From Candidatus Uhrbacteria bacterium (GTDB lineage Bacteria; Patescibacteriota; Patescibacteriia; GWA2-47-26): a DNA stretch of 64,000 nucleotides. Where the stretch lies: contig JACPJN010000006.1 in assembly GCA_016187515.1 (NCBI GenBank), forward strand, positions 192,856 to 256,855, in the 5' to 3' direction. Numbering within the stretch: position 1 is the stretch's first letter; every line of letters starts with the position of its first letter. Under the pieces are notes generated by a model. It did no database searches, was not told where the DNA came from, and was given only the letters and a program-made list of their open reading frames with translations. The position numbers and the translations under genes are program-made. Shown here piece by piece: positions 1 through 44,326 of the stretch.

Positions 1-1590
1 CGCCATGATCTCATCCCCGTTTACCAGCGCTTTCGGACTGATTTGCTTTTTCTCAATTGCCGCGCGCATCCGTTCAATACGCGCGATCATGCCGCGCAGA
101 TTGGAAAGATCCGGTTGAGCCGTGACCAGGTCACCGGTCGCAGTGGCCTGGTCGTAAGCGCGCGGAATTGCTGCCGACCCGTCGCAAAAAGCCAGCCGGA
201 GCAATTCCGGTCCCGGGTGTTTCGGATTGAAAAAATATTTCTCCACGGTTGACGCCTTGAGATCCTCCGGATCGCTGTGCAAAAGTAAGAGATGCGAATT
301 TATCAGCCAGTGCAGTTTATCATAATCCACGTGGAGCAACCCTTCTTCCATAATGGAAAGGGTGAGCCGCCGCGCGATCTCGCGCGCCAGTCCGGCGCCG
401 ACCTCGGCATGCTCGTCAAATCTAATTCTATCCACCCCATCGTTTTCCGGGGTCTTGAGCATGGGCGGCTTGCCAACATCATGAAAAAGAATGGCCATGA
501 TGAGGAGGGCGTTGTAATGCGGATCGACCCCTCCCCGCGCCCCTCCCACAAGGGGAGGGGAATTTTGCTCAATTCCCTCCCCCTGGATGGGGGAGGTTAG
601 GAGGGGGTGGCCAAACAATCTCACATATTCCTCCGACCCCAATGCTTCAAGCGCGAGGCGCGTATGCGTCCAAACATCTCCTTCGCTATGATATTCCTCG
701 GGCTGGGGGCATCCTTTCATTTTCAAAAGTTCGGGCATCAGCGCCTCAAACGCGCCGGAAACATCATATAAATCAAACGCGCGTACCGGATCGGCGTAAA
801 AAGCGCGGGTCAGTTCGCGGCTAACCACCTCGCGCGGCGCGACAAACTCGGCTAGCGGAGAAAGTATCGGCCGCGGCGCGTCAGCGCGTTTATCGTTTAT
901 CCGCGGCATTACCGCTTTAAGCGCGTCCAGGGTTGCCCCTTCCGCGGAAAACCCCAGCTCGCAGGCAAACCGCAGCGCGCGCAACATTCTAGTATAATCC
1001 TCCTCAAACCGCGCTTTGGCATCGCCAACAGCTCGCACTACACGCGCCTCAATGTCTTTCATACCACCATACGGATCCACGGTTAAACCAATTTCTAATT
1101 TCGAATTCCTGCCCCGCACCGAGCTTTGCTCTGGTGCGTTGGGTCTAATCTCTAATCTCAACGCAACTGCATTTATCGTAAAATCCCTCCGCCCCAAATC
1201 TTCCTCAATCGGCAACCCATGATCCGACTGCACCTCCACATCCCGATACCCGCCGGTTCCCCAAGCATGCTCGGTACGCGGTAGCGCCACATCAAAGGCC
1301 TCCAGCCCGCTGGCTTTAAACTCCTCATACCCTTCGTCCGGAATAAATTTGTACACGCCGAAATTACGGCCTACTAAATTAACAATCCCCACGGTGCCCA
1401 AAAACTCCTGCAAATGCCGCGCCTGCACTCCGCGCACCACAAAATCATAGTCCTTGGTCGGCCGCGAAAGCGCCGCGTCCCGCACCGCTCCGCCAACCAA
1501 AAAAATCTCGGCGCTCGGATGCGCTTCAAGAAGTTTTTTAATCCATGAAAAATATGGATGTTCAAGAGTGGTGTGCAATGTTTCAAACAT
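1..1590 (-). CDS. cca: CCA-adding tRNA nucleotidyltransferase (NTase head plus HD domain). The C-terminal end runs off the window start.
   Basis: Minus-strand translation from the ATG at 1588-1590 reads MFETLHTTLEHPYFSWIKKLLEAHPSAEIFLVGGAVRDAALSRPTKDYDFVV (the GG..RD nucleotidyltransferase motif). An HD motif (LLIMAILFHDVGKP) follows. The frame stays open to position 1. It carries two in-frame repeat insertions (near 1090-1130 and 526-610). Confidence 0.7.
   Translation of the reverse strand, partial: MFETLHTTLEHPYFSWIKKLLEAHPSAEIFLVGGAVRDAALSRPTKDYDFVVRGVQARHLQEFLGTVGIVNLVGRNFGVYKFIPDEGYEEFKASGLEAFDVALPRTEHAWGTGGYRDVEVQSDHGLPIEEDLGRRDFTINAVALRLEIRPNAPEQSSVRGRNSKLEIGLTVDPYGGMKDIEARVVRAVGDAKARFEEDYTRMLRALRFACELGFSAEGATLDALKAVMPRINDKRADAPRPILSPLAEFVAPREVVSRELTRAFYADPVRAFDLYDVSGAFEALMPELLKMKGCPQPEEYHSEGDVWTHTRLALEALGSEEYVRLFGHPLLTSPIQGEGIEQNSPPLVGGARGGVDPHYNALLIMAILFHDVGKPPMLKTPENDGVDRIRFDEHAEVGAGLAREIARRLTLSIMEEGLLHVDYDKLHWLINSHLLLLHSDPEDLKASTVEKYFFNPKHPGPELLRLAFCDGSAAIPRAYDQATATGDLVTAQPDLSNLRGMIARIERMRAAIEKKQISPKALVNGDEIMA
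526..610. repeat. GC-rich palindromic element inserted in-frame in cca
   Basis: It contains ccctccccgcgcccctcccacaaggggaggggaa ... ccctccccctggatgggggagg. On the coding strand it translates to ...SPIQGEGIEQNSPPLVGGARGG.... Confidence 0.6.
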
Positions 1591-1600
1591 GGGATCAAAA

Positions 1601-1674
1601 TGCGAGCGCCTGGACTCGAACCAGGAACCGCCAAGGTATAAGCTTGGAGCTCTAACCAATTGAGCTACGCTCGC
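1601..1674 (-). tRNA. tRNA-Ile with anticodon UAU. No CCA is encoded.
   Basis: The reverse complement folds as a cloverleaf: acceptor GCGAGCG, D-arm GCTC/GAGC, anticodon stem CCAAG/CTTGG with loop CTTATAC (anticodon TAT), T-arm CCTGG-TTCGAGT-CCAGG, discriminator A. Confidence 0.7.
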
Positions 1675-1797
1675 ATGTTTCACCATCCTACCGCATGGAT
1701 GGGAAAAATTCAAGTGTAAAAAAGCCAGCGTGTACCGTACCCGCGAGGGGTTGGGTAAAACGCCGGCGGACTTGGCTGAACTTGACTGAAGGAGCGC

Positions 1798-2244
1798 TTA
1801 CTGCGCCGCGGCCACTTGTTCGAAGCGGGGCTTGATCGCCTTCGCGAACCACGGATTCGCTTCGGCGTACTCGTAGATGATCTGGCCACAGCGCGCCTGC
1901 TTGCCCAAGTTGCTCAAGAGCAGCGCGTCGCTGTCGTGGTAGCGGTCGACAATGACGCGCAGAATGACCCAGACCATGAAACTGGCCATGATTCCTCCAG
2001 TCGCGGCAAGCGCCATGGACTTGAGGAAGCCCAGATTCGGGAGGTAGTGCAAGACGATGGGCATCATCCCGACAACACCGCAAGCAACCAAGAACATGAT
2101 GGACATGCCGAGGGTTATCTCCCTGTCGTGCATCGCCTTGATGCACCGCAGGGTCTCGCGCACGAGCGTGCGTTCGGTTTCCGGCAAGTCGTCCACGCGG
2201 ACGGTGATCGTACGTGGACCAGTACTGGTGCCCAAAAACAGCAT
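1798..2244 (-). CDS. hypothetical small membrane protein (two predicted TM helices)
   Basis: A 148-aa ORF with hydrophobic stretches (IMFLVACGVVGMMPIVL, ALAATGGIMASFMVWVIL). The overlapping + strand ORF 1816-2502 looks like a GC-rich antisense artefact. Confidence 0.4.
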   Translation of the reverse strand: MLFLGTSTGPRTITVRVDDLPETERTLVRETLRCIKAMHDREITLGMSIMFLVACGVVGMMPIVLHYLPNLGFLKSMALAATGGIMASFMVWVILRVIVDRYHDSDALLLSNLGKQARCGQIIYEYAEANPWFAKAIKPRFEQVAAAQ

Positions 2245-2342
2245 GGCGTTCTCCTTTGCGGTTTCCCGCGTTTGGTCGTCAAGCTGGCCCTGACGACTGT
2301 CTTCTTTATACAGGATTTGGGTTTTTATGTCAAGCGTTTGAT

Positions 2343-2383
2343 TAAAAACAAAAACACTCCGACCACGGTCGGAGTGTTTTTGG
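2343..2383. terminator. Bidirectional rho-independent terminator hairpin just downstream of tRNA-Val
   Basis: A perfect stem ctccgacc-acg-ggtcggag (2357-2375) is flanked by tgtttttgg on the + strand and by tgtttttgttttt on the minus strand. Confidence 0.5.
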
Positions 2384-2455
2384 TGCGCGATGAAGGGATC
2401 GAACCTTCGGCCTTTCCCATGTCAAGGGAATGCTCTACCACTGAGCTAATCGCGC
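2384..2455 (-). tRNA. tRNA-Val with anticodon GAC
   Basis: The reverse complement reads GCGCGAT-TA-GCTC-AGTGGTA-GAGC-A-TTCCC-TTGACAT-GGGAA-AGGCC-GAAGG-TTCGATC-CCTTC-ATCGCGC-A. The anticodon loop TTGACAT gives GAC. Confidence 0.8.
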
Positions 2456-2600
2456 AAAAATTTCGTCATCCCGAGCGGAGCCGAGCCCGATGTGAGGCAT
2501 AGTCGAGGGATCTCACACCCCGCATACTTGTACCGTGTGAGATTTCTCCACTTCGCCCCGATTGCGATCGGGGCTTCGGTCGAAATGACGAGGTGGAAAG
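2456..2600. repeat. Structured ~145-nt element with terminal inverted repeats (tttcgtcatcc ... gaaatgacgagg) and two internal hairpins
   Basis: The termini tcgtcat/atgacga pair. The internal stems are gtgtgagat/atctcacac and ccccgat-tgc-gatcgggg. It shares the 'gtcatccc' start with the element at 41165-41228. Confidence 0.3.
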
Positions 2601-2629
2601 GATGGCAGAAATAGTATAGTGTATTCTTA

Positions 2630-3793
2630 TCAATGCGGCAAGAGTTTTAGCATGCCGTTGAGTTTGTCGACGACTTCGCGTTCGGCCGAGATGAGTGTGT
2701 GATTCAAAAGGCAGTAGTTGGTCATGGACGGGGAGGTGGAAAGCATTTGCCAGGGAAGCGCATGCACCCCGTCATGGCGGGTGGATTTTTTTGTGGCCAG
2801 CATGACGCAAATTTTGCCCTCGCTCTCTTCGTGGATAAGCGCTACAAGCGACGCCTCGGGCGAAGTAAAAATCAGTTCTTCAATGACGTCCGGCAGTTCA
2901 CGCACATCCCCGCCGCTCTCCAGAATTTCCCGCATGGTTAAGGTTGACCAGGTGAGTTTTGTAAACGGGTCGTGTTTCAGGTGCGCCAGCGCGCGGCCCC
3001 ACAGCCGCAAAGAGGCCAATGAACGCGAGCGGAAAATATTTTTCATAATCTCCTCGCGGCGGGCGCCCAACTGAATAAGCTCCGCGGCCAGCTTCAGCGT
3101 ATTGGGCGTGGTGGCGGGATGTTTAAAGCCGCCGGTTTTCAAAAATATCGCGGCAAAAAGATTAGTGGCGATCTGCTCGTCAAAATGCGGTCCGCCGATT
3201 TTTTTGAACAGCTCGGCCAGAATCTCTCCGGTGGCCGAAGCGTTCATCTCAACCAGATTAATCTGCCCGTACTGCTCATTTTGAGCGTGGTGATCAATGT
3301 TCAAAATGGGGGTCTGGTAAAAAAGATCCGCGTGGTCTTCAAAAAGTTTTCCCAGCGCCGGAAGATCCGGCGTATCCAGGGTAACCACCGTGTCATAAGG
3401 ATACGCTTGCCGGTGAATCGACAGATCTTCCGCGCGAACCGCGCCAGAGGCGGGGGTCAGATAAATTTCCAGCGCCCCCTTTTTCAATCCGTAACTCCAC
3501 TCCTTGATGGGGGCGCTTTCCGTATTGATGCGGACCGTATACCGGCTGTCGCGCGAAATTTCCGGACGAACCATTTGAATGTGCGGAAGAAACGCAAAAC
3601 GCGCGGACGGACTAAACCCGTCCGAGACCACTTCCACTTTCTTGCCCAGTTTATCCAAATACCGATACAAGGCCAGCGCGCTTCCCAGCGCGTCGCCGGA
3701 TTCTTTGCTTTGCGCGTTAAACGGAAACGCAATCAGCGTCCGGTCTGATTCGGAAAGCCGCTGGGAGATTTGTTGCAGTATTTCTTGAGCCAT
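2630..3793 (-). CDS. DHH-family phosphoesterase (NrnA-like oligoribonuclease/pAp phosphatase)
   Basis: It has the DHH motif NIDHHAQN and a GGxxH-like region. I place the start at MAQEILQQ (3793) rather than the ORF-track start, because the latter lies inside the upstream repeat array. Confidence 0.65.
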   Translation of the reverse strand: MAQEILQQISQRLSESDRTLIAFPFNAQSKESGDALGSALALYRYLDKLGKKVEVVSDGFSPSARFAFLPHIQMVRPEISRDSRYTVRINTESAPIKEWSYGLKKGALEIYLTPASGAVRAEDLSIHRQAYPYDTVVTLDTPDLPALGKLFEDHADLFYQTPILNIDHHAQNEQYGQINLVEMNASATGEILAELFKKIGGPHFDEQIATNLFAAIFLKTGGFKHPATTPNTLKLAAELIQLGARREEIMKNIFRSRSLASLRLWGRALAHLKHDPFTKLTWSTLTMREILESGGDVRELPDVIEELIFTSPEASLVALIHEESEGKICVMLATKKSTRHDGVHALPWQMLSTSPSMTNYCLLNHTLISAEREVVDKLNGMLKLLPH

Positions 3794-3799
3794 AGGATT

Positions 3800-3885
3800 G
3801 TTGATTGAGTAAATCAAGTAAATCAAGCGAGACAAGTAAATCAAGGGCATGATTTACACTTGATTTACCTGCTTTACTTCAATAC
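3800..3885. repeat. Array of direct and inverted 10-nt repeats (gtaaatcaag / cttgatttac) immediately upstream of the DHH gene start
   Basis: It reads gtaaatcaag gtaaatcaag cgagacaa gtaaatcaag ggcatga tttacacttgatttac. That is four direct copies plus inverted copies. Confidence 0.5.
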
Positions 3886-4043
3886 TTCAAAATCAAAGTA
3901 CTATACTCGCCTACCGTTTTTCCGTCAAGGGTGCGCCTGTTGACAATATAATGACCGTCTTCTTTTTTTGACATTAAAAAACCGGCCCAGTCGCGTGCGA
4001 CTGCGCCGGGTAGAACGGAAGATGCGCCGGATTGCCGTCAGTC

Positions 4044-4418
4044 CTAGCCGTCCTCAATCGCCTGCGCAAAAGCGGTACCCACCCCGGACGGAACAGCCAG
4101 CACCCCAAACCGCATGATTCTGAATATGGCCGGCGAAGGACGGTTGGGCAGGGTCACCTGAAAACAGTGGCCTTCCTGCACCCGCAAGAGTTCCCAAAGC
4201 CGGTAAGCCGCGGCGTACGGACTCACGGTATTGCCCAGCACGCCGGCGCGCAGGCGAAACGGGTCGGTCTCGCTCCCCGTGCCTTCCACCATCCCCAGAT
4301 TCGGACAATACTGCCGCGCTTGTTCAATTTCTTGATACGGATTAAAGATGGGCCTGATCTGTCCGCTGTCGTCGTTGGAGATCGCGATTGCCGGCGGAAT
4401 GATTCCTTGGATCCTCAT
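4044..4418 (-). CDS. hypothetical protein
   Basis: A 124-aa ORF of mixed composition. The overlapping + ORF 4032-4445 is Arg/Pro-rich and looks like an artefact. Confidence 0.3.
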   Translation of the reverse strand: MRIQGIIPPAIAISNDDSGQIRPIFNPYQEIEQARQYCPNLGMVEGTGSETDPFRLRAGVLGNTVSPYAAAYRLWELLRVQEGHCFQVTLPNRPSPAIFRIMRFGVLAVPSGVGTAFAQAIEDG

Positions 4419-4501: not shown

Positions 4502-6982
4502 ATGTCCAAAGAAATTCCAAAGCAATACAACGCCTCCGAGCATGAGGATTCCATATATAAAATGTGGGAGGCCTCCGGCGCGTTTACGCCAGAGGCGGCA
4601 AAGAGCATAGGGCGTATAGCAAAGAGTAGGAACCCTAAGCCCTCAGCTCTAAGCTCTAAGCCATTTTGTATCATCATGCCTCCGCCCAATGCCAACGGCG
4701 CTTTGCATATTGGCCATGCCTTTGAAGTCGCCTTGCACGATCTTTTGGTGCGCTACCACCGCATGCGTGGCGATAAAACTCTTTGGCTTCCCGGCGCGGA
4801 TCATGCCGGCTTTGAGACCCAAGTGGTGTATGATAAAAAACTGGAAAAGGAGGGCCGTAATCGCTTCAAAATACCGCGAGAAGAATTGTGGCAAGAAATC
4901 TGGAACTTTACGCAAGAAAATAAAAAAACCATGGAGGGACAGCTGCGCAAACTCGGCGCCTCTTGTGATTGGTCGCGCGAAAAATTTACCCTTGATCCTG
5001 ATATAATTAAAACTGTTTATGCGACGTTCAACCAGCTCTATGTCGATGGGCTTGTCTATCGCGATAACCGCATTGTGAATTGGTGCACAAAGCATCAAAC
5101 CACTCTTTCAGATCTTGAAATAAAGCACGTTGAGCGCAAAGACCCGCTTTATTACATCAAATACGGTCCAGTAACTTTGGCCACAGTGCGTCTGGAAACA
5201 AAATTTGGCGATACCGCAGTGGCGGTACACCCGAAAGATAAGCGATATAAAAATTTAATCGGCAAGGAGATCGAGATCAAAACGTTACTTGGCCTGACAA
5301 AAATCAAAGTCATTGGCGATAAGGCGGTTGATCCGGAATTTGGAACCGGTGCGGTAAAAGTAACGCCGGCGCATGATCCGAATGATTTTGAAATGTGGAA
5401 AAGGCATGAACAAGAAATTCCAGGACCAAAATCGGTTATTGATCAATATGGTCGCATGGAACTTGTAAGCCGCTGGCCGGACAATCCGGCTGCGAAAAAA
5501 TACCATGGCATGAAGGTGCTGGAGGCACGTAACGCTATGGAGAAAGACATGCAGGAGCAAGGATTGATGAACAAAATTGATTCGGAGTATGTACATAGCG
5601 TTGCGACCTGCTATAAATGCGGCAACATTGTGGAGCCAAGAATTTTACCACAATGGTATGTCCGCATGACGGCTCCGCCGTCAGCGGGAAATCACAAATC
5701 ACAAATCACAAATCACAAATCTCTGCGCGATATTGCAGTTGAGGCGGTAAGGAAAGGCGAAATTAAAATTATTCCGAAACGATTTGAAAAAATCTTCATG
5801 CATTGGATGAAAAACTTGCGCGACTGGAATATCAGCCGTCAAATCGTGTGGGGCATTCGGATTCCGGCGTGGTATCGGTCTACGGTTCCTCCCCTTAGGG
5901 TAAGGGGAAGCGAGGAGGGGTTACGAGACGTTCATAACCCACCCCAATCCTCCCACGCCTTTTGGGAGGGAGAAACGGAAATTTATGTAGGCGCCAAACC
6001 ACCAAAAGGCGAGGGTTGGATCCAAGATCCGGATGTCTTTGATACTTGGTTTTCCTCCGGCCAGTGGCCATTTGCTACTCTTGGCTATCCGCATGGCAAA
6101 GATTTCAAAGAATTTTACCCGACCGATGTCATGGGGCCGGCGTACGAAATTCTTTTCTTCTGGGTGGCGCGGATGATTATGCTTGGTCTTTATCGCACCG
6201 GAAAAATTCCTTTCAAAACCGTGTTTCTCCACGGTTTAGTACGCGATAAGGACCGACAAAAAATGTCCAAATCTAAAGGAAACGTGATTGACCCTTTGGG
6301 AGTTGCGGATTTATATGGCACGGATGCCGTGCGTATGGCGCTCGTTTCTGGAACGGCTCCGGGTAATGATCCGACCATTTCCGAGGAAAAAATAAAAGGC
6401 TACCGTAATTTCGCAAACAAAATCTGGAACGCGAGTCGGTTTGTGCTGATGAATCTCGACCCGCTTTTTGTCATTCCGAGCGAAGTCGAGGAATCTCACA
6501 TGATGAAACACGGCAAGCGCATGGCAGGGCAAGGTGTGAGATCTCTCACTGGCGTTCGAGATGACATTGTGTTGAGCGCAGCCGACAAAAAAATCCTCAA
6601 AGAACTAGAGGCCATGGCCAAAAAAGTAACCCGCCATTTGGATAAATTTGAATTTCATCTTGCGGGAGAAACTCTCTACCACTATTTCTGGCATACCTTT
6701 GCGGATAAGATTATTGAGCAAATGAAACCGCGGCTACAGGGAGAGACCCCTCCTAACCTCCCCTCCGAGAGGGGAGGAAACGAATCACTTTCTCCCCCTG
6801 CCCGAGGGGGAGTTAGAGGGGGTGGGAGCGATCGTCTCACCGCCCAATATATCCTCTACACCTGTCTGACCACCTCCCTCAAGCTCCTCCACCCCTTCAT
6901 GCCGTTTGTTACGGAGGCGGTGTGGCAACAATTACAGCACAAAAAGAAAACCATGCTTATTACCGAATCTTGGCCGGTATGA
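4502..6982 (+). CDS. valS: valyl-tRNA synthetase
   Basis: The class I HIGH motif reads PPPNANGALHIGHAF, and KMSKSKGN is present. The gene carries one heptamer repeat insertion at 5688-5722 and two palindromic insertions at 5888-5975 and 6746-6827. Confidence 0.85.
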   Translation: MSKEIPKQYNASEHEDSIYKMWEASGAFTPEAAKSIGRIAKSRNPKPSALSSKPFCIIMPPPNANGALHIGHAFEVALHDLLVRYHRMRGDKTLWLPGADHAGFETQVVYDKKLEKEGRNRFKIPREELWQEIWNFTQENKKTMEGQLRKLGASCDWSREKFTLDPDIIKTVYATFNQLYVDGLVYRDNRIVNWCTKHQTTLSDLEIKHVERKDPLYYIKYGPVTLATVRLETKFGDTAVAVHPKDKRYKNLIGKEIEIKTLLGLTKIKVIGDKAVDPEFGTGAVKVTPAHDPNDFEMWKRHEQEIPGPKSVIDQYGRMELVSRWPDNPAAKKYHGMKVLEARNAMEKDMQEQGLMNKIDSEYVHSVATCYKCGNIVEPRILPQWYVRMTAPPSAGNHKSQITNHKSLRDIAVEAVRKGEIKIIPKRFEKIFMHWMKNLRDWNISRQIVWGIRIPAWYRSTVPPLRVRGSEEGLRDVHNPPQSSHAFWEGETEIYVGAKPPKGEGWIQDPDVFDTWFSSGQWPFATLGYPHGKDFKEFYPTDVMGPAYEILFFWVARMIMLGLYRTGKIPFKTVFLHGLVRDKDRQKMSKSKGNVIDPLGVADLYGTDAVRMALVSGTAPGNDPTISEEKIKGYRNFANKIWNASRFVLMNLDPLFVIPSEVEESHMMKHGKRMAGQGVRSLTGVRDDIVLSAADKKILKELEAMAKKVTRHLDKFEFHLAGETLYHYFWHTFADKIIEQMKPRLQGETPPNLPSERGGNESLSPPARGGVRGGGSDRLTAQYILYTCLTTSLKLLHPFMPFVTEAVWQQLQHKKKTMLITESWPV
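5888..5975. repeat. Palindromic element (ccccttagggtaagggg / ggggttacg type) in-frame in valS
   Basis: It translates to PPLRVRGSEEGLRDVHNPPQSSHAFWEGE. Confidence 0.6.
6746..6827. repeat. Palindromic element (cccctcc..ggagggg type) in-frame in valS
   Basis: It translates to ETPPNLPSERGGNESLSPPARGGVRGGGSD. Confidence 0.6.
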
Positions 6983-7824: not shown

Positions 7825-8070
7825 AAGGAACGGAAAAATACTATCCCTATATTGCATCCAAAGAGCTTAATCTGCAGATTTTGCCAAAATAAAATACAGC
7901 CCCTACTCCCTTGCGGGAGACGCCACCATGAAGGCGACTAGTCAGGGCTGTATCAATTCCACTATCACCATACCATAAGATACAATATCTGTCAAGACAA
8001 CGGTGGGGATAAGTCATGCATAGCAACAATATGATAACGCAATAACTTAATAACCAAATAACTCATCAAT

Positions 8071-10592: not shown

Positions 10593-10596
10593 AATC

Positions 10597-10704
10597 CTTA
10601 AACTTCTCCACCCTTTCATGCCCTTTGTTACGGAGGCGGTGTGGCAGCGAATGCCCCACGCCCAAAAATCCATGCTCATAGTTGAGAAATGGCCAAAAAT
10701 GTGA
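10597..10704 (+). pseudogene. Duplicated 3' fragment of valS
   Basis: It encodes ...[34 protein letters not shown]. The real valS C-terminus at 6870-6982 reads [34 protein letters not shown]. The two are about 75% identical at nucleotide level over about 100 nt. Confidence 0.6.
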
Positions 10705-11941: not shown

Positions 11942-13817
11942 TCAGGCACGAAAAGACATCCTAGCGATTCTCAATAAGGCGGGGGTTGCGGCAACGCCCG
12001 CTGATCTTGTCTTTCCGCCAGATCCGCAGATGGGCGATCTGTCGTTGCCGCTTTTTGCGCTGGCCAAGGAGCGGAAAATTGCGCCGGGGGCGCTGGCGCA
12101 GGAATTGGCACGGACATTGAAACCGGCCGGACTGGTGGAGCGCCTTGAGGCCGCTGGGCCGTACCTTAATTTTCGGCTGAAGCGGGGGGAAGTGGCTAAA
12201 ATGATGCTCACCCTCCCCTCAATCCCCTCCCGTCAAGGGAGGGGAAGCAAAACAAAATCCCCCTCCCCTAGTGGGAGGGGTCAGGGGAGGGGGAATCAGC
12301 GCATCATGATGGAAATGGTTTCTCCCAACAACAACAAACCTCTCCACCTCGGACACTTGCGCAATGCGTTTTTGGGCGAATCAGTCGCCCGTCTGCTTGA
12401 ATCGCAAGGCGCAAAAATTATTCGTACCTGTCTTTTTAACGATCGCGGACTGGCGATTGCCAAAGCCATGCTCGCCTACAAACTTTGGGGCCCGCCAAAC
12501 TTTCCATCAACAAAGGATAAAGTTAAGCGGGTAAACCAAAGTCTGCCAGAAAAGGGAGACCACTATGTGGTGCAGTGGTATGTGTTATTTGAGCAAAGAG
12601 CAAAGAGCAAAGAGCAAAGTGATTTACAAAAACAAGCCGAGGAATTGGTGCGCCTTTGGGAAGCCGGCGACAAAGAAACTCTCGCGCTTTGGAAAAAAAT
12701 GGCTGGCTGGGCGCTGGACGGCATCAATGAAACACTCAAGCGGATTGAAATTAAATTCAACACTATCTATTATGAGAGTGAGCTTTGGAAACAAGGGAAA
12801 AAAGTGGTTGAGCAAGGATTAAAAAAGGGTATTTTTAAAAAAGACGAGAGCGGGGCGGTGCTGGTGGAATTTGACTCACCCTCACCCCAACCCTCTCCCA
12901 TCAAGGGAGAGGGAGTAATCGGCAATCCCCCTCCCCTGGTGGGAGGGGTAAGGGGAGGGGGTTTACCCCCAAAAGTTCTTTTGCGCTCCGATGGCACGGC
13001 AATCTATGCCACGAGCGACCTAGCGCTTACCCCGGAAAAATTTAGAAAATATAAACTTTCGCATTCAATCTGGTGCGTGGGGCAGGAACAGGATCTTTAT
13101 TTGAAACAGCTTTTTGCAATTTTTAAACTGCTCAATTACAAATGGTCTGATTCCTGCGAACATTTAACCTACGGGCACGTCGCGCTTCCGGAAGGGCGCA
13201 TGAAAACGCGGGAGGGAACTGTGGTGGAAGCCGATAATCTTTTGGATGAACTTCACGAACTCGCCCGCAAAGAAACGCAAAAACGGCATAAAGGCCTTGG
13301 GCGCGAAAACCTGCATGCCCGAGCTGAAACAATCGCGCAGGCCGCGGTGCGCTATCATCTTTTGCGCGTTGACCCGAAATCCGGAATCCAATTTGACCCG
13401 CAACAATCACTCGCCTTTACCGGCGACACCGGGCCGTATCTGCTTTACACGTATGCGAGGATTGCAAGCATACTCCGGAAGGCGGAAACTAGAAATTTGA
13501 AATTAGAAACTAGAAAATCTAAATCACCAATCACTAATTTCCAATTTCCAATTTCGCAAAATGAGTGGACACTCATTTTGCTTCTTGCCCGCTTTCCGGA
13601 AATCATTACGCAGGCCACCAAAGATCGCGACCCATCCCATCTTGCAAAATATCTCTATAAACTTGCTCAACAATTTTCTGATTTTTACGAAAACTCGCCA
13701 ATTCTCAAATCCGCCGAACCCATCCGCTCCTTCCGCCTGGCCCTTATTTCCGCCATTCAAAAAACTCTTAAACATGGTCTGCACCTTTTGACCATTGAAA
13801 CGGTGGAGGAGATGTGA
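11931..13817 (+). CDS. argS: arginyl-tRNA synthetase
   Basis: The HIGH-like motif reads PNNNKPLHLGHLRN. The ATG at 11931 overlaps the tyrS end by 11 nt. It carries heptamer repeats at 12588-12620 and 13486-13550, and palindromic insertions at 12210-12297 and 12878-12965. Confidence 0.85.
   Translation: MVLNQARKDILAILNKAGVAATPADLVFPPDPQMGDLSLPLFALAKERKIAPGALAQELARTLKPAGLVERLEAAGPYLNFRLKRGEVAKMMLTLPSIPSRQGRGSKTKSPSPSGRGQGRGNQRIMMEMVSPNNNKPLHLGHLRNAFLGESVARLLESQGAKIIRTCLFNDRGLAIAKAMLAYKLWGPPNFPSTKDKVKRVNQSLPEKGDHYVVQWYVLFEQRAKSKEQSDLQKQAEELVRLWEAGDKETLALWKKMAGWALDGINETLKRIEIKFNTIYYESELWKQGKKVVEQGLKKGIFKKDESGAVLVEFDSPSPQPSPIKGEGVIGNPPPLVGGVRGGGLPPKVLLRSDGTAIYATSDLALTPEKFRKYKLSHSIWCVGQEQDLYLKQLFAIFKLLNYKWSDSCEHLTYGHVALPEGRMKTREGTVVEADNLLDELHELARKETQKRHKGLGRENLHARAETIAQAAVRYHLLRVDPKSGIQFDPQQSLAFTGDTGPYLLYTYARIASILRKAETRNLKLETRKSKSPITNFQFPISQNEWTLILLLARFPEIITQATKDRDPSHLAKYLYKLAQQFSDFYENSPILKSAEPIRSFRLALISAIQKTLKHGLHLLTIETVEEM
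12210..12297. repeat. Palindromic element in-frame in argS
   Basis: The sequence caccctcccctcaatcccctcccgtcaagggaggggaag...ccccctcccctagtgggaggggtcaggggaggggg translates to LTLPSIPSRQGRGSKTKSPSPSGRGQGRGN. Confidence 0.6.
12878..12965. repeat. Palindromic element in-frame in argS (second)
   Basis: It translates to SPSPQPSPIKGEGVIGNPPPLVGGVRGGGL. Confidence 0.6.
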
Positions 13818-13974: not shown

Positions 13975-15225
13975 ATGCATATTGCCATTGACGCTCGAAT
14001 GTATGGAACCGCCCAGCGCGGGATTGGACGGTATTTGATGAAGTTGATTGAGGGGTTGGAGGAAATTGAAATTGCTCCCACCCCTCCGAACCTCCCTTCG
14101 GGCAGGGGAGGAAATTTGTACACCATTTTTTTACGCCGTGAAAATTTTGACGAATACCAGCCGCGCAATCCCAATTTCAAAAAAGCGCTTTGGAACGCGC
14201 CCTGGTACGGCTTGAAAGAGCAAATCAATTTCAAACAACTCACTGCTGTGAACTGTGAACCGATGGCTGTGAACTCAATATACCATTTCCCCCATTGGAA
14301 TGTCCCCCTTTTATTCCGCCAGCCATTTGTGGTAACTATCCATGACCTGGAACTTTTCTCATCCAATCGCACACGGGAGAATACAACGCGCGGACGACTT
14401 ATCTACTGGTTGAAATTTCAGGCCTTCAAAATAATTTTCCGCCATGCCGTACTGGCCGCCCGCGGAATCATTGTGCCGAGCAATTATGCGCGCGAGCAGC
14501 TTTTAGATCTGTATCCGCAGGCGCGGAAAAAAGTACGGGTGATCTACGAAGCACCCGCTTTAGTCAACAGTTCACAGTCAACAGTTCACAGTAAACCAAA
14601 GCAAGCCGTGAACCGTGAACCGCTGACTGATGACTACGTCTTGTACGTTGGCGCCGCCTATCCGCATAAAAATCTTCCCCGCCTATTTGAGGCGTGGAAG
14701 ATCGTACACGCGCAATTACCTGACTACAAACTTGTACTGGTCGGCCGGGAGGATTGGTTTTGGAAAAAACTAAAAGCACAGTGGGGGCATAACCCCTCCC
14801 ATCCTCCCCTTACCTTAAGGGGAGGAGACGATCGCGACCCACCTCTTAAGGTAAGAGGGGGGAGGGGGAGTTATGGCCAACAAAACGACATTATCTTTTA
14901 TGGCGAAACTACGGACGCCGAACTTACCGCCCTTTACCAAAACGCCGCCCTCCTGGTGCAGCCCTCGCTCACGGAAGGATTTTCTCTCCCTCCGCTTGAA
15001 GCGCTTGCCCACGGCACGCCGGTCGCGGTTTCCGACATCCCGGTACACCGCGAAATTCTAGGCCAAGCCGCGGCCTATTTTGATCCGAAAAATCCCGCCG
15101 CCATTGCTAACGTGATTATTCATACCCTGCGTAACCCGATAATCGCTAAGCTGCCGCGTACCTATTCTTGGCGCGAAAATGCCCAACAAACTCGGGCGCT
15201 GTACGAAACCGTCAAGATTGTGTAA
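13975..15225 (+). CDS. glycosyltransferase family 1 (GT4)
   Basis: The C-terminus has the E-x7-E region EGFSLPPLEALAHGTPV. There are palindromic insertions at 14088-14124 and 14788-14876. Confidence 0.7.
   Translation: MHIAIDARMYGTAQRGIGRYLMKLIEGLEEIEIAPTPPNLPSGRGGNLYTIFLRRENFDEYQPRNPNFKKALWNAPWYGLKEQINFKQLTAVNCEPMAVNSIYHFPHWNVPLLFRQPFVVTIHDLELFSSNRTRENTTRGRLIYWLKFQAFKIIFRHAVLAARGIIVPSNYAREQLLDLYPQARKKVRVIYEAPALVNSSQSTVHSKPKQAVNREPLTDDYVLYVGAAYPHKNLPRLFEAWKIVHAQLPDYKLVLVGREDWFWKKLKAQWGHNPSHPPLTLRGGDDRDPPLKVRGGRGSYGQQNDIIFYGETTDAELTALYQNAALLVQPSLTEGFSLPPLEALAHGTPVAVSDIPVHREILGQAAAYFDPKNPAAIANVIIHTLRNPIIAKLPRTYSWRENAQQTRALYETVKIV
14788..14876. repeat. Palindromic element in-frame in the glycosyltransferase gene (a smaller copy lies at 14088-14124)
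   Basis: The sequence cataacccctcccatcctccccttaccttaaggggagga...cttaaggtaagaggggggagggggagttatgg translates to HNPSHPPLTLRGGDDRDPPLKVRGGRGS. Confidence 0.6.
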
Positions 15226-22713: not shown

Positions 22714-22748
22714 TACTCATTTTAGGTGCGATCGCAAATAAATGAGTA
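22714..22748. repeat. 35-nt hairpin repeat, copy 1 (tactcattttaggtgcgatcgcaaataaatgagta)
   Basis: A perfect 9-bp stem tactcattt/aaatgagta with an internal gcgatcgc palindrome. Identical copies lie at 38495-38529 and 39188-39222. Confidence 0.6.
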
Positions 22749-22877
22749 TGGCATAAACCAAGGAAAAGGAATTGGGGTGTAAGAATTCCAAAGGAGAACG
22801 CCATGATTTTAGAAAAAACGAGAGCCCCGAGCGGAAATGAATTCCACAAGGGGCTCGTGATGGGAACCGCGCTCCTG

Positions 22878-29173: not shown

Positions 29174-29240
29174 AACGAGAAACAGTGTATCGCATTTATC
29201 TGCTTTTTGCAATCGCTCGGTCGTGGTATACTGTGGAGAT

Positions 29241-30561: not shown

Positions 30562-31308
30562 ATGAAAGAAATAATCCCCACCATTCTTGTGCAAGATCGT
30601 TTGGAGTTTGAACGGCGGCTTGGTATAATGGAGGGGAAGATTCCGGTTGCGCAGATGGATATTATGGATGGGAAGTTCGTTAAAAACACCACCTTTTCCG
30701 ACCCGAAAATCGCCGCGCGCTACCAAGTGGACTATGAGTTGGATTTGATGGTGGCCGATCCTGGGCCGGTGCTGGAGAAGTGGCACGACACCCTCCCCCC
30801 CGCCCGTGGCGAGGCTCGCCTTTGGCGGCAGCCCCCTCCCATTAAGGGAGGGGGAAAAGTGGTACGAGCGTTTGTGCATGCCGAGATAAAAAAACCTCTG
30901 GCGTCGCTTCTTGAAAAAATAAAATCGTACGGCTGGGAAGCCGGGATTGCGCTCAATCCGGATACAGGGTGGGAAGTGGTGGAGCCGTATATCGCTCGTA
31001 ACCCCTCCCGACCTCCCCTTACCCTAAGGGGAGGAGAAACTGTGGACTCCATACTTTTTATGACGGTCTATCCCGGGCAAAACGGCGCGGCGTTTCAGCC
31101 GAAAGTAATTCCGAAGATTACGCAGTTTCATAAAGCGTATCCAAAGATAATAATTGAGGTGGACGGCGGAGTAAACGAGAAGACCTTACCCCGCCTACTC
31201 ACGGCCGGCGTTACTCGTTTTGCGGTTGGCAGTGCGATATGGTCCGCGCCGGATCCCGTTGGAGAATATAAAAAACTTTTTCAATTAACAAATAACTCAC
31301 TAATATAA
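30562..31308 (+). CDS. rpe: ribulose-phosphate 3-epimerase
   Basis: It has DIMDGKFV and the end-motif VDGGVN. There are two palindromic insertions at 30790-30858 and 30999-31038. The leader carries 11-nt repeats. Confidence 0.75.
   Translation: MKEIIPTILVQDRLEFERRLGIMEGKIPVAQMDIMDGKFVKNTTFSDPKIAARYQVDYELDLMVADPGPVLEKWHDTLPPARGEARLWRQPPPIKGGGKVVRAFVHAEIKKPLASLLEKIKSYGWEAGIALNPDTGWEVVEPYIARNPSRPPLTLRGGETVDSILFMTVYPGQNGAAFQPKVIPKITQFHKAYPKIIIEVDGGVNEKTLPRLLTAGVTRFAVGSAIWSAPDPVGEYKKLFQLTNNSLI
30790..30858. repeat. Palindromic element in-frame in rpe (second copy at 30999-31038)
   Basis: ccctcccccccgcccgtggcgaggctcgcctttggcggcagccccctcccattaagggagggggaa. Confidence 0.55.
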
Positions 31309-37357: not shown

Positions 37358-38443
37358 ATGTTTGATGTCATTACAATAGGAAGCGCGACCCGCGACGTGT
37401 TTTTGTTTGTCCAAGCGCTTCATCCGCATCGGGAATCAGACGCGGTAAGTAAAATTGAGGCCTGTCTTCCCTTCGGCGCTAAAATTGATATTGAACGCCT
37501 TGCTTTTGATACCGGCGGAGGAGCAACCAACAGCGCCGCGACGTTTGCGCGGCTGGGAAAATTTGAAGTTGCGGCGCTCACGCGCATAGGACAAGACAGC
37601 CGCGGACAAAGTATTTTAAAAGTGCTTCACGCCGACAACATTGATACTTCGTTGGTGCAAGTCACCAATAAAGATCATACCGCTTATTCTTCAATCCTTT
37701 CTCCAACCCACGCGCATAGTGAGCGCACGATTTTGGTCTATCGCGGGGCATCCTCATGCATTGAGAGCAGTAAAATTCCGTGGACTAAACTGCGTGCCAA
37801 ATGGTTTTATATATCTTCGCTTGGCGGCGATCTGTTACTTTTAAAGAAACTTATCGACCATGCTCGAAGGATAAAAGCTCAAGTCGCCTGGAATCCCGGC
37901 GGTCAAGAACTCTCCAAACTCACCCCTCCCCTTAGGTTAAGGGGAGGTTGGGAGGGGTTACGACAATCAATTGACTTCCTCATCCTCAACCGTGAAGAAG
38001 CCGCAAAACTCACTGGAAAAAAATTCGATGACACCAAAGGATTGCTTCGCGCGCTGGCGCGTACTACACACATCGCAGTCATGACCGACGGCCCTAAAGG
38101 CGCGTATGCCATCGTAGGTTCACAGTCATCAGTTCACAGTTCACAGTATCGTAATTCAAAAACTAATTACCCAATTACCAAATTACCTAATCACCAAACG
38201 GCCTACTTCGTCCCCTCTGTCGGCCACAAACCGGAAAATCTCACCGGCGCCGGTGACGCTTTCGGTTCCGGCTTTGTAACCGGCTGGATCAAAAGCCGCG
38301 GCGATATCAAATACGCCTTACGCTTGGCTTCGTTCAATGCTGACAGTGTAGTCCAACACGTCGGCGCGAAAAACGGAATTCTTGAGAAAATTCCTTCCGC
38401 AAAGCAGCTGCAAAAGTTGCCCGTAAAGACACTGCACATTTAG
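37358..38443 (+). CDS. PfkB-family sugar kinase (second copy)
   Basis: I place the start at MFDVITIGSATRDV. The C-terminus has a GAGDAF motif. There is a palindromic insertion at 37921-37962 and tandem repeats at 38120-38200. Confidence 0.65.
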   Translation: MFDVITIGSATRDVFLFVQALHPHRESDAVSKIEACLPFGAKIDIERLAFDTGGGATNSAATFARLGKFEVAALTRIGQDSRGQSILKVLHADNIDTSLVQVTNKDHTAYSSILSPTHAHSERTILVYRGASSCIESSKIPWTKLRAKWFYISSLGGDLLLLKKLIDHARRIKAQVAWNPGGQELSKLTPPLRLRGGWEGLRQSIDFLILNREEAAKLTGKKFDDTKGLLRALARTTHIAVMTDGPKGAYAIVGSQSSVHSSQYRNSKTNYPITKLPNHQTAYFVPSVGHKPENLTGAGDAFGSGFVTGWIKSRGDIKYALRLASFNADSVVQHVGAKNGILEKIPSAKQLQKLPVKTLHI

Positions 38444-38494: not shown

Positions 38495-38529
38495 TACTCA
38501 TTTTAGGTGCGATCGCAAATAAATGAGTA
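38495..38529. repeat. 35-nt hairpin repeat, copy 2
   Basis: Identical to 22714-22748. It overlaps the 5' end and leader of the PaaX-like gene. Confidence 0.6.
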
Positions 38530-39130
38530 TGAGAAAGCGCGTACGCGAGTGAGTATGAAATCAAAATTTAGACAATTTCAAATCGTCTTGCTGCAAATCT
38601 ACGCCGGATATCGCGAGCTTGATCATGCGCTTGCCTCATACAATCCGCGCAGCCACACACCTGGCTGGGATGCCACCGGCTATGCAGAGGACGCGCGCAA
38701 ATATGCAAAGCGGGATATAAAGCGACTCCATCGCCATATTGATTATCTCAAACGAGTCGGCTATGTAGAGCGCGTCCAAGAAGGTGAGGAGCAACTCTTG
38801 AAATTAACGGCCAAAGGCAAATACGAACTTCTTCGTTTGCGCTTTGTTGAACACCTGATGCAACAAAAGAAAGAGTTATGGGATCGCAAATGGTGGATCG
38901 TGATTTTTGATATTCCGGAACAAATGAAAAAGTACCGCAATTTTTTCCGCCTCCTTCTCAAAAAGAATGGTTTTAAAATGGTTCAGCGCTCGGTATGGAT
39001 CACGCCCTACAATCCGCGACCTTACATTAATGATCTTTTAGTATACCTTCGCCTTTCTAAATACTTCGAAATCATTGAAGCCGACTGCGATCGTTGTAGC
39101 CCAGCGCTTTTTAAAAAATTCAAACCGTAA
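38507..39130 (+). CDS. PaaX-like transcriptional regulator: N-terminal winged HTH plus a PaaX_C-type C-terminal domain
   Basis: The wHTH region reads IDYLKRVGYVERVQEGEEQLLKLTAKG. The C-terminal part WDRKWWIVIFDIPEQMKKYRNFFRLLLKKNGFKMVQRSVWITP follows the PaaX C-domain pattern (W.G.W.L...IPE...R..L...L...GF..L...VW). The true start may be MKSKF at 38557. Confidence 0.5.
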   Translation: MRSQINEYEKARTRVSMKSKFRQFQIVLLQIYAGYRELDHALASYNPRSHTPGWDATGYAEDARKYAKRDIKRLHRHIDYLKRVGYVERVQEGEEQLLKLTAKGKYELLRLRFVEHLMQQKKELWDRKWWIVIFDIPEQMKKYRNFFRLLLKKNGFKMVQRSVWITPYNPRPYINDLLVYLRLSKYFEIIEADCDRCSPALFKKFKP

Positions 39131-39187: not shown

Positions 39188-39222
39188 TACTCATTTTAGG
39201 TGCGATCGCAAATAAATGAGTA
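39188..39222. repeat. 35-nt hairpin repeat, copy 3
   Basis: Identical to the other two copies. It lies 58 nt after the PaaX-like stop. Confidence 0.6.
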
Positions 39223-39287
39223 TGCAATGAACAATGGTGAAAGATAATTTAGGGTAGTGAACTACGGACATTAAGAAGATTCCTCAC

Positions 39288-42515: not shown

Positions 42516-42591
42516 GGGCCCGTAGTTCACTCGGTAGAACGTCTCATTTGCAATGAGAAGGTAGGCGGTTCGAATCCGCCCGGGTCCACCA
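42516..42591 (+). tRNA. tRNA-Ala with anticodon UGC. CCA is encoded.
   Basis: GGGCCCG-TA-GTTC-ACTCGGTA-GAAC-G-TCTCA-TTTGCAA-TGAGA-AGGTA-GGCGG-TTCGAAT-CCGCC-CGGGTCC-A-CCA. The G3:U70 identity pair is present. Confidence 0.85.
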
Positions 42592-42604
42592 TAAGCTATC
42601 TTCT

Positions 42605-42919
42605 ATGCCTCGTGATAGATTCCCTCATTCGCAATCCGATACACAACCACCCGGTGACGCTCAACGCTTATCGGGAGAAAATCCTATGGCAGAGCAGCGA
42701 AGATTACGCAGCATGTATACCGACTTGTTGGAACGAATCCAATTAACCAAGGCACGGCTTAGCGGTAAGCGGCAAGCGCTTAAAGATGATCCGCAGGCCT
42801 TGAGAGAGATTGATGACCAGCTCGCGGCGGCGCAGGATATTGAAAAACGCGTGGAAGATAATTTAAAACAACTTGGCTCCGATTCTCTCTACGGAGAATC
42901 AGATCTTCGTCCAAATTAG
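42605..42919 (+). CDS. hypothetical coiled-coil protein
   Basis: A 104-aa ORF. A likely internal start is MAEQRRLRS. Confidence 0.35.
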   Translation: MPRDRFPHSQSDTQPPGDAQRLSGENPMAEQRRLRSMYTDLLERIQLTKARLSGKRQALKDDPQALREIDDQLAAAQDIEKRVEDNLKQLGSDSLYGESDLRPN

Positions 42920-42922
42920 CGC

Positions 42923-44326
42923 TCAAAGCAATTTTTTCTGCGCGGCTTTTTCTTGCTCATCAAAAATATTTACCACCCCGTACTCGCCGTCATAACCGGG
43001 CGGATCGATTTTAACTTTTCCATCGCGCACTCTTTTTATTGCTTCCGCCAGGCGCGGCGAGGCAATAGCCGCGATCTCTTGCGGCAGTAGATTCAAAAGT
43101 AAATTCAGCTCTGTCCCCGCTTTCGCGACTAAATCCCAATACACTTTCTTCACGCTTTTCGCGCTTCTTCCTTTTACTCCTTCGGCTTCGGCAATAATTT
43201 TATCCAGTTCAATAAGCGGCCAAAATTGCGGGTGCGCGAGCGGAACACGGCCGGCTGGCTCATTGGCCAACTCCTCCACGCGCGAAAGCACGCCGACGGT
43301 TACGAGTTTTTTGCATTTCGGACAAATGCCGCCTAACTTCTTGGTTTCTTTAGGATGCAAGCACGCTTTACACGCGCGATGGCCGTCATAATGATAACGG
43401 CCTTCGTCGGGAATGAACTCCAGAGTGCCGGACATCCGCAATCCGCCCCCTCCCCTAACCCCTCCCACCGAGGGAGGGGGATCCTTTTTTACTCCCTCTC
43501 CCTTTATGGGAGAGGGCTGGGGTGAGGGTGGTTGCGTCAACTTCGCAGGTGCAGCATTGCGTATCGCCTCCATGATGGCATCGTACGACAGCGCACTCTC
43601 GCTTCCCTCAAACACGGTTGCCTCTCTTCCCAGGTTTGGCAATGAGTGAGCATCGGCAAAAGAGACCAGCGCCACGCGGTCAAGTTCGCGCACGCGCCAG
43701 CACATTGGCGGATCGGCGGACAGCCCGGTTTCAATGGCAAAAATATGCGGAGTCAATTCTTCAAAACACTCTTTAATGGAATCAAACCCGGAATTGGATC
43801 CGAAGATCGCAAACCAAGGAGTAAAAGCATGCGCCGGGATCATCACATTGCGCGGGTCAATCCCTAAAATAATTTTCAACAGCTCTTTTGAGCTCATGCC
43901 GATGATGGCGCGCCCATCTGATCCTAGTTTGCACCCGCGCGTGAGTAGCGCGGCATTTATTTCCCCCGCCACCTTTATCGAAGGCGCGTAAATACAATGA
44001 TGCACCCTTCTCACTTTGCGTGCACCTTGAGAGTAAATACACGCCAGCTCCGTGCCCAGCATGAAAAGCGTGGGCTTTTTAGGCAGAGGAATTGGCGGGG
44101 GCGAGGTTGGCGCGCCTCCATCCCGCAACACATACAAGCTCTCTCGGCCGCTCGGAACTAACTTTTCCTTGATCTCCTCAAACCATTTTGTATGCGTAAA
44201 GTCGCCGGCAGAAACAATATCCACGCCTTTAACCCGGCACCAGGCGTCGATATTTTCAAGGGTAAGCGCCGGTGAACACGCGCGGGCGTATTTTGAATGC
44301 GTGTGGAGATCGGCAATGAATCGCAT
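42923..44326 (-). CDS. PHP-domain nuclease, Endonuclease Q-like, with a C-terminal Zn-ribbon
   Basis: N-terminal MRFIADLHTHSKYARA (PHP His motif). C-terminal CKACLHPKETKKLGGICPKCKK. There is a large palindromic insertion at 43444-43533. Confidence 0.45.
   Translation of the reverse strand: MRFIADLHTHSKYARACSPALTLENIDAWCRVKGVDIVSAGDFTHTKWFEEIKEKLVPSGRESLYVLRDGGAPTSPPPIPLPKKPTLFMLGTELACIYSQGARKVRRVHHCIYAPSIKVAGEINAALLTRGCKLGSDGRAIIGMSSKELLKIILGIDPRNVMIPAHAFTPWFAIFGSNSGFDSIKECFEELTPHIFAIETGLSADPPMCWRVRELDRVALVSFADAHSLPNLGREATVFEGSESALSYDAIMEAIRNAAPAKLTQPPSPQPSPIKGEGVKKDPPPSVGGVRGGGGLRMSGTLEFIPDEGRYHYDGHRACKACLHPKETKKLGGICPKCKKLVTVGVLSRVEELANEPAGRVPLAHPQFWPLIELDKIIAEAEGVKGRSAKSVKKVYWDLVAKAGTELNLLLNLLPQEIAAIASPRLAEAIKRVRDGKVKIDPPGYDGEYGVVNIFDEQEKAAQKKLL
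43444..43533. repeat. Palindromic element in-frame in the EndoQ-like gene
   Basis: The sequence ccgccccctcccctaacccctcccaccgagggaggggg...ccctctccctttatgggagagggctggggtgagggtgg encodes PSPQPSPIKGEGVKKDPPPSVGGVRGGGG on the minus strand. Confidence 0.6.

Follow-up and report, generated by a model that had tools for sequence, protein, structure and literature searches.

The protein-coding genes of a bacterium of the Candidate Phyla Radiation (CPR) carry many in-frame copies of a GC-rich palindromic repeat that, judged by its sequence, is the unit known from other bacteria as BoxC, PIT or TMECO. We analysed a stretch of 64,000 nucleotides (nt) from Candidatus Uhrbacteria bacterium (assembly GCA_016187515.1, contig JACPJN010000006.1, positions 192,856 to 256,855), hereafter the window, and found 17 loci with 26 hairpins of this type, against about 0.5 hairpins by chance. 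All 17 copies are in frame with their host gene and have no stop codon in that frame. We think it probable that these are copies of a pan-bacterial repeat that settled in tolerant loops of genes, are translated, and are non-autonomous relatives of cassettes in which two such units bracket a gene of the DUF559 family. This heavy colonisation of CPR genes by a BoxC-type motif appears to be new.

The repeat unit and its in-frame copies

The unit is composed of a C-rich arm, a loop and a G-rich arm, plus a third C- or G-block, and it occurs singly (~38 nt) or as an inverted pair (~85-90 nt). The commonest hairpin has 21 nt, with an 8-bp stem and a 5-nt loop. In full-length copies the two hairpins lie 35-36 nt from each other, between a C-rich block and a G-rich block on the outside. 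When we searched for perfect hairpins with a stem of at least 6 and only C or T in the 5' arm, we found 25 in the window and none of the opposite polarity (G-arm first); 30 dinucleotide-preserving shuffles gave a mean of 0.5 and a maximum of 2. A relaxed scan (stem of 8, at most one mismatch) added the second hairpin of the pair in the GT4 gene and one probable chance match at 14676; it revealed no intergenic hairpin and none past 43517. The third block (a C-block on the 5' side or a G-block on the 3' side, within 16 nt) is present at 23 of the 25 hairpins. There are 8 inverted pairs, usually made of one CCTCTCCC-type and one CCCCTCCC-type hairpin, and each contributes a half capable of forming a G-quadruplex to the mRNA. 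The G+C content of the 17 loci ranges from 0.47 to 0.74, compared with 0.51 for the window. Independent repeat finding recovers families of the element with 62-92% identity, and the Rfam scan of the window gave no family on any of the GC-rich elements. In the stems 98% of the cells are paired and 5 of the 8 positions vary on both sides, a count to which we give no weight because the hairpins were picked for perfect pairing, which makes it circular.

The copies had been noticed in a preliminary description of the window, which reported at least 16 of them: the 17 loci that it listed are all present, far above the level of the shuffles. Two details needed correction, since the first copy in the GT4 gene starts at about 14078 instead of 14088, and rpiB is on the plus strand, not the minus. 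The last 20.5 kb of the window (43534-64000), which hold ATP-citrate-lyase-like genes (44339-47229), CofD, GlmS and PFK, have no GC-rich element; if copies were evenly placed, this would have a probability of 0.68^17, or ~0.001.

The copies differ in composition. Inverted pairs lie in cca at 526-610 on the minus strand (C-block and hairpin, then hairpin and G-block; gene at 1-1590 minus; it reads PLLTSPIQGEGIEQNSPPLVGGARGG), in valS at 6746-6827 (copy 2, plus), in argS at 12210-12297 (copy 1, plus) and 12878-12965 (copy 2, plus, with an exact TMECO pattern at 12879-12913 minus), in the GT4 gene at 14788-14876 (copy 2, plus, with ends CATAACCCC...GGGAGTTATG), in ileS at 28318-28402 (copy 1, minus, of the TAACCCC / CCCCTTA...TAAGGGG subtype) and in an EndoQ-like open reading frame (ORF) at 43444-43533 (minus; ORF at 42923-44326 minus; exact TMECO at 43494-43528 plus). 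The first copy of valS (5888-5975, plus) has its third blocks turned inward: a hairpin with a G-block, 7 nt, then a C-block with a hairpin. Copy 2 of ileS (26200-26326, minus) is an extended pair of 127 nt with an exact TMECO at 26269-26303 plus, and copy 3 (25961-26030, minus) consists of two C-blocks, a small GGCC hairpin, the main hairpin and a G-block. Single units are found in the GT4 gene at 14078-14124 (copy 1, plus, C-block and hairpin), in femAB at 23770-23813 (minus, antisense to the gene, exact TMECO at 23771-23805 minus), in rpiB at 29421-29458 (plus, C-block and hairpin; gene at 29223-29759 plus; it reads PLLNPPLKKGRKK), in rpe at 30999-31038 (copy 2, plus) and in the gene of a PfkB-family kinase at 37921-37962 (plus, hairpin and G-block). 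The other rpe copy (30790-30858, plus) has a C-block, an extra GC stem and a hairpin, and the copy in the DUF4012 gene (17263-17289, plus) is a bare hairpin of 27 nt, read as IPPFAKGGA, without a third block.

These loci are all within long ORFs whose Pfam domains resume on either side of the copy. Pfam supports the identity of the CCA-adding enzyme, of a class I synthetase (named valS in the preliminary description), and of GT4, DUF4012, FemAB, IleS, RpiB, Rpe and the PfkB kinase; ArgS is backed by homologues and matches in PDB, and the EndoQ-like ORF has no Pfam matches. The preliminary description had stressed that no copy is intergenic. We found none either, but this is unremarkable by itself because the window is ~88% coding, so that all 17 loci would be coding by chance with a probability of 0.88^17 = 0.11. 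The frame is much more informative. We rejected the idea that the elements are stop-free by design, as 50 of their 102 frames are open, like random windows (51%). In the absence of constraint, the probability that all 17 copies are open and in frame is ~(0.16)^17. Since only about half of the element frames are open, the preservation of the frame must reflect a filter of survivorship, which argues strongly, at the level of sequence, that the copies are translated.

The encoded segments are rich in Pro, Gly, Ser, Arg and Glu. Among the larger copies, five are co-oriented with the host gene and one is antisense. The copies in cca and the EndoQ-like ORF and the second copy in argS are co-oriented and use one common reading frame, with a recurrent peptide, SPxPSPIKGEGV...PPLVGGVRGGG; the EndoQ-like copy encodes the same peptide as argS copy 2. 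The first argS copy is read in another frame and the half-copy of femAB is antisense; the earlier proposal that the element gives related peptides on either strand holds only in part.

Comparison with orthologues identifies the copies as insertions. We used a syntenic contig from a related organism (L001), whose ArgS and GT4 proteins are 73% identical to those of the window and whose DUF4012 protein is 42% identical. The sites of argS copy 2, GT4 copy 2 and the DUF4012 hairpin are empty in L001, those of argS copy 1 and both valS copies are filled, that of GT4 copy 1 holds a different member of the family, and L001 has additional copies of its own. In a four-way alignment of ValS (the window, L001 and two further CPR contigs, L203 and L204), the site of valS copy 2 is filled in three and empty in L204, and certain loops are occupied by different repeat families in different genomes. 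Called genes contain 20 of the 22 hairpins of this type that occur in three related CPR contigs. ArgS has 628 residues in the window and ~570 in most homologues, and its second copy is absent from all 12 aligned homologues (L001 and 11 others). The copies are thus lineage-specific, as had been suggested, and aminoacyl-tRNA synthetases tolerate them. In the ValS of L203 and L204 there are zinc-knuckle-like Cys residues (CPHCG) that the window and L001 have lost; both have valS copy 1 in this region (5860-6000 of the window).

Structural data agree with the proposed siting in surface loops. Relative to solved structures, argS copy 2 lies between the two aligned blocks, the first rpe copy corresponds to ~21 residues more than in solved structures of the enzyme, and the second is a clean insertion of 14 residues relative to PDB 2fli. 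The AlphaFold2 model of ArgS has a mean predicted local distance difference test (pLDDT) score of 86.7, and residues 102-118 and 318-342, inside the two inserts, have values below 50 and are modelled only as coil. The elements would thus occupy loops that are modelled, with low confidence, as disordered. We looked for the same segments at the same sites in orthologues from unrelated lineages and found none, and the copies resemble one another more than shuffled GC-rich sequence does. At the first ArgS site, L001 has a copy with ~90% identity (by eye) to argS copy 2 of the window, spacer included, and the two are read in different frames. These sequence comparisons support the view that the elements are dispersed palindromic repeats at the level of DNA, not conserved protein domains.

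Two of the shared copies have diverged much less than neutral sites. Four-fold degenerate sites are 46% identical (243/527) between the window and L001, which is near saturation. These two copies are 83% (valS copy 1) and 81% (argS copy 1) identical, with 25/30 and 24/30 identical third codon positions, respectively, and the C-G to T-A change that distinguishes the first hairpin of argS copy 1 from its orthologue is compensatory. At two other shared sites identity is only 46-50%, with perfect hairpins nonetheless. Either a conserved pool renews or homogenises the copies, or selection acts on the structure of the nucleic acid.

Relatives in other bacteria and the DUF559 cassettes

The repeat unit is not new. 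The strict pattern published for an intrastrand-triplex motif earlier called BoxC and PIT, CCCTCNCCC-N3-6-GGGNGAGGG-N3-GGGNGAGGG (Holder et al. 2015, PMC4666352), has 4 exact matches in the window when one stem mismatch is allowed, and the remaining copies fit a relaxed three-block pattern. Because of these strict matches and of the third blocks at 23 of 25 hairpins, we regard the unit as a known kind of sequence. The window elements and BoxC/PIT/TMECO have in common the three-block unit with the consensus words CCCTCTCCC, GGGAGAGGG and GGGTGAGGG, conserved stems with variable loops, inverted pairs of two subtypes (of which E. coli K-12 has five; PMC4666352), and presence or absence that differs between relatives. 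By sequence they are the same unit, and the difference lies in its location: all 23 copies of E. coli K-12 are intergenic ("always located intergenically", PMC4666352), whereas here all 17 are genic and in frame. Many window copies also have variant stems (CCCCTCCC, CCCCTTA...TAAGGGG). The motif has been shown to form a hairpin, a triplex or a G-quadruplex in vitro, and the E. coli motif has been described as a switch between G-quadruplex and hairpin (Kaplan et al. 2016, PMC5100583). Holder et al. reported 3610 copies across 262 genomes of Proteobacteria and also mentioned GC-rich triplex motifs of cyanobacteria, with CPR outside their search (PMC4666352). Reported counts in E. coli strains run from 1 to 29, and Salmonella reportedly has none. 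[quoted passage not shown] The element, presented initially as undescribed, is therefore known as a unit (PMC4666352), and it is its in-frame spread in CPR that appears undescribed.

The unit is widely distributed. A scan for CCCTCTCCC-N5-GGGAGAGGG in one genome per species gave matches that include, among those listed, Proteobacteria, Chloroflexota, Cyanobacteriota, Bacteroidota, Nitrospirota, Elusimicrobiota, Planctomycetota and Acidobacteriota, along with one Parcubacteria genome. A CCCCTCACCCC block, or GGGGTGAGGGG, its complement, flanks most of the matches examined; many phyla have the hairpin together with this CCCTCACCCC/GGGGTGAGGG flank, and the pattern is common in viral contigs too. 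We checked matches in other phyla for a spanning ORF in low-GC cases only, because long spurious ORFs are common in high-GC genomes and make the check uninformative there. In-frame copies exist outside CPR in Gastranaerophilales, Muribaculaceae and other metagenomic contigs.

One of these cases points to a possible origin. A Gastranaerophilales contig has two units 387 nt apart inside an ORF encoding PriA, and between them there is an in-frame DUF559 domain (PF04480, E = 9e-39). The same layout is present in one Sphingomonadales and one alphaproteobacterial contig. Among 120 loci of random genome matches, out of those listed, there are 3 DUF559 ORFs, each placed precisely between two units. 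In E. coli K-12, a TMECO copy is found ~170 nt from the stop codon of ycjD, a DUF559 gene; a degenerate unit overlaps this stop codon, and between the unit and the TMECO copy there is a duplicated fragment of the 3' end of ycjD. We then approached the association from the other side and fetched 80 metagenomic DUF559 loci by protein patterns only, blind to hairpins, of which 65 had enough flanking sequence. A perfect hairpin occurs within 150 nt on both sides in 41 of the 65 loci and on at least one side in 57. Hairpins number 4.7 per kb close to the gene and 0.19 per kb at a greater distance. Of 46 two-sided loci, 25 have a left hairpin that equals the reverse complement of the right one even in the loop. 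The one DUF559 gene found in viral contigs is also bracketed.

These flanks are close relatives of the window elements, whose half-elements are 92-97% identical to them over 35-39 nt; the left half of argS copy 1 has 37 of 38 positions identical to a unit flanking DUF559 in another contig (L140). The DUF559 domain matches the structure of an "endonuclease-like protein" (PDB 3hrl). Whole cassettes are found in frame inside PriA, an HrpA-like helicase, methyltransferases and an M14-like peptidase. The contigs with in-frame cassettes are non-CPR or without lineage (L092, at 1774-4404; L126, L128, L123 and L125), and in them the host frame crosses the endonuclease domain. Our literature search, of incomplete coverage, gave no paper that connects DUF559 or YcjD with such repeats, and the link is a new, testable hypothesis.

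Taken together, the data are probably best explained by the following scenario. Dispersed DNA-level repeats would have landed in genes of the Candidatus Uhrbacteria lineage, and the survivors would be insertions of a length multiple of three, stop-free in the host frame and placed in tolerant surface loops, where they would be translated into disordered segments rich in Pro, Gly, Ser, Arg and Glu. They would be non-autonomous relatives of small cassettes with a DUF559 gene (Vsr-like PD-(D/E)XK) between two units acting as terminal inverted repeats, and may have spread through copying that is initiated by a nuclease supplied in trans. A broader proposition is possible, although we advance it tentatively and would not bet on it: BoxC/triplex repeats in general, without an explanation since the 1990s, may be the terminal inverted repeats of previously unrecognised, pan-bacterial DUF559 mini-cassettes, whose miniature derivatives, and sometimes the cassettes themselves, colonise genes in frame and in CPR have become a major source from which essential enzymes gain surface loops.

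Several observations weigh against this scenario. A search of the window, L001, L203 and L204 (~113 kb of CPR sequence) with a hidden Markov model and filters off revealed neither a DUF559 gene nor a remnant of one; the only matches were weak, to the repeat-encoded tail of the DUF559 profile. The window copies can therefore only be non-autonomous relatives, and mobilisation by DUF559 is a step that we infer. The closest DUF559 cassettes are from Nitrospirae, Thermodesulfovibrionales and Proteobacteria, not from CPR. In 29 of 46 cassettes the third block points inward, whereas most window pairs have it outward, as in 3 cassettes; the pair of the window with inward third blocks is valS copy 1. 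DUF559 genes homing into pre-existing pairs would give the same association. The flanks of the window copies have no target-site duplication and no common target sequence, and TMECO shows no association with mobile elements in E. coli (PMC4666352). The high DNA conservation of the shared copies could mean that they have a function for the host. Finally, translation of the copies is deduced from their frames.

Alternative explanations and comparison with known systems

The most serious alternative is that the hairpins are kept for a role of the nucleic acid in the host, e.g., as an mRNA hairpin or G-quadruplex that slows ribosomes between folding units, to stabilise mRNA or as a structural signal in DNA, with a selfish origin being secondary. 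Shared copies are indeed ~82% identical where neutral sites are at 46%, third codon positions included; stems of orthologous copies keep their perfect pairing despite C-G to T-A changes, sites are occupied across deep divergence, and every inverted pair puts a G-quadruplex-capable half into the mRNA. A host role fits less well with presence and absence between close orthologues, with different repeat families in the same loop across genomes, with the two shared sites that are only 46-50% identical, and with the units that flank DUF559 genes in many phyla. The intergenic units of E. coli had no detectable promoter, terminator or regulatory effect (PMC4666352). We regard this explanation as rather unlikely, though it deserves more credit than the others. 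If the association with DUF559 were incidental, the elements could be ordinary MITEs or elements related to repetitive extragenic palindromic (REP) sequences and their REPIN doublets, moved by a classical transposase of an insertion sequence (IS) or of the RAYT/IS200-like Y1 type. Y1 transposases typically recognise hairpins, the elements resemble REPINs and MITEs in their architecture of inverted pairs, and no DUF559 gene was found in the ~113 kb of CPR sequence. We consider this improbable given that target-site duplications are missing, that no transposase occurs among 30 window ORFs scanned with Pfam (all host genes except argS included), and that the hairpins have DUF559 as their neighbour, rather than a transposase, in 57 of 65 DUF559 loci.

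The remaining alternatives dispense with mobility, with translation or with the DNA. Units could arise in place repeatedly, by slippage or template switching on G/C tracts, and converge under structural constraints. The sequences are of low complexity and tightly limited by the rules of pairing and of triplex formation, and the element has been linked to local instability, with raised variability around E. coli copies between strains (PMC4666352). Yet such convergence is very unlikely to produce 92-97% identity with unrelated contigs over 35-39 nt that include loops and inter-block spacers, ~90% identity (by eye) over ~85 nt with the spacer, in different genes and frames, or clean insertions beside empty sites; sequence comparisons also point to copies grouping by family member, not by locus. 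It is harder still to believe that the segments are excised from the mRNA or bypassed by the ribosome. There is a precedent in the mitochondria of one yeast, where GC-rich palindromic inserts in coding sequence are bypassed, but such processes would impose no constraint on frame or stops, and all 17 copies keep the frame without stops even if about half of the element frames hold them. We give the least credit to a feature selected as peptide, i.e., Pro/Gly linkers with DNA palindromy as a by-product. Similar peptides do recur in argS, the EndoQ-like ORF and cca, but the frame and the orientation in which the same DNA is read differ between copies, its third codon positions are conserved, its perfect stems are 50-fold enriched over shuffles, and the peptide segments are modelled as disordered.

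The elements, which we think are related to DUF559 cassettes, share traits with several further known systems. The preliminary description had likened them to Rickettsia palindromic elements (RPEs). The behaviour is the same: small palindromes inserted in frame in unrelated housekeeping genes of a reduced-genome bacterium, at structurally tolerant sites; RPEs are translated, as the window copies probably are. The elements do not, however, appear to be members of an RPE family. RPEs have ~150 bp and form ten Rickettsia-specific families, each encoding a conserved peptide (Ogata et al. 2000, summarised in PMC10969869), whereas the window elements measure 27-127 nt, are part of a family that spans phyla and use several reading frames. 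Like MITEs, they are short, have inverted ends and apparent longer protein-encoding relatives, and show occasional in-frame fusions (PMC10969869). They differ from MITEs, which combine inverted repeats with a target-site duplication, in that no duplication is seen, there is no IS-type transposase partner and half-units are dispersed as well; their ends are shared with DUF559 cassettes rather than with IS. REPs and REPINs are hairpin repeats, often in inverted doublets, that flank the gene of a REP-associated tyrosine transposase (RAYT, of the Y1 type). Here, too, short dispersed hairpins, often in inverted doublets, flank a small single-copy gene of nuclease type, but this gene is DUF559 (PF04480), of the PD-(D/E)XK type, instead of a Y1 (HUH) RAYT, the window repeats lack a GTAG-type head, and REPs are extragenic. 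Homing endonuclease genes are also small nuclease ORFs within host genes. In the DUF559 cassettes there is no intron or intein to remove them, the host frame runs through the cassette from end to end, and the nuclease role is putative.

Other repeats of the window and implications

The window has other repeats in genes. A second in-frame family consists of tandem heptanucleotides (AATCTCG, AATTTCC, AATTTGT and similar), often in inverted blocks, at 1088-1164, 5682-5723, 13485-13560, 24042-24221, 26388-26649, 26914-26980, 27594-27667 and 28494-28528, and in an intergenic position at 61814-61940. Three heptamers make seven codons, and they give peptides such as SRLEIRD and KSQITNHKS in cca, valS, argS, femAB and ileS; at least one copy (valS APPSAGNHKSQITNHKS) is missing in L001. 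CTGTGAA and its variants form a third, heptamer-like repeat (14243-14279, 14603-14639, 24499-24535 and 25362-25398), which encodes peptides of the VNSSQSTVHS type in GT4 and femAB, with a similar peptide in pfkB, and its GT4 copy is conserved in L001. At 6467-6571, valS contains a long palindrome of 105 nt, GTCATTCCGAGCGAAGTCGAGGAATCTCACA...TGTGAGATCTC...GAGATGACA, with a predicted hairpin of -39 kcal/mol, read in frame as VIPSEVEESH...SLTGVRDD; L001 has a GC-rich unit there instead, and a related hairpin is intergenic at 2496-2557.

Three intergenic copies of a 57-nt motif (22714-22770, 38495-38551 and 39188-39244) lie just upstream of an ORF start or across it. The motif contains the palindrome TACTCATTT-AGGTGCGATCGCA-AATAAATGAGTA with the core GCGATCGC, ends in ATG, and may serve as a common site of regulation. 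Just upstream of tyrS, a stretch of 84 nt (10596-10679) is 79% identical to the 3' end of valS (6877-6960) and may be the remnant of a duplicated synthetase C-terminus. At 7889-7954 minus there is an Rfam match to DUF3800-IX RNA (51 bits, cut-off 36.8). The 3' part of the 23S rRNA (61740-64000 minus) is broken by group I intron-like sequence, with the best match at 62934-63141 (46.9 bits, just below the Rfam cut-off) and two weaker ones; an ORF encoding a LAGLIDADG endonuclease lies in the 23S rRNA introns at 62296-62805, and the 5S rRNA is at 61424-61541.

As for the GC-rich element, a repeat known only as an intergenic curiosity can live in essential genes and, as the frames of its copies argue, be translated there. 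This makes it a second, independent case of the phenomenon described in Rickettsia, and one that reaches across phyla. The element is a source of insertion variation in CPR proteins, which matters for the annotation, alignment and modelling of CPR genes and their products. The conservation of DNA within coding sequence points to a constraint on nucleic-acid structure that is still unexplained. The bracketing of DUF559 genes offers a concrete hypothesis on where BoxC/PIT elements came from and how they spread, and it suggests a candidate function for the endonuclease-like proteins of this large, uncharacterised family.

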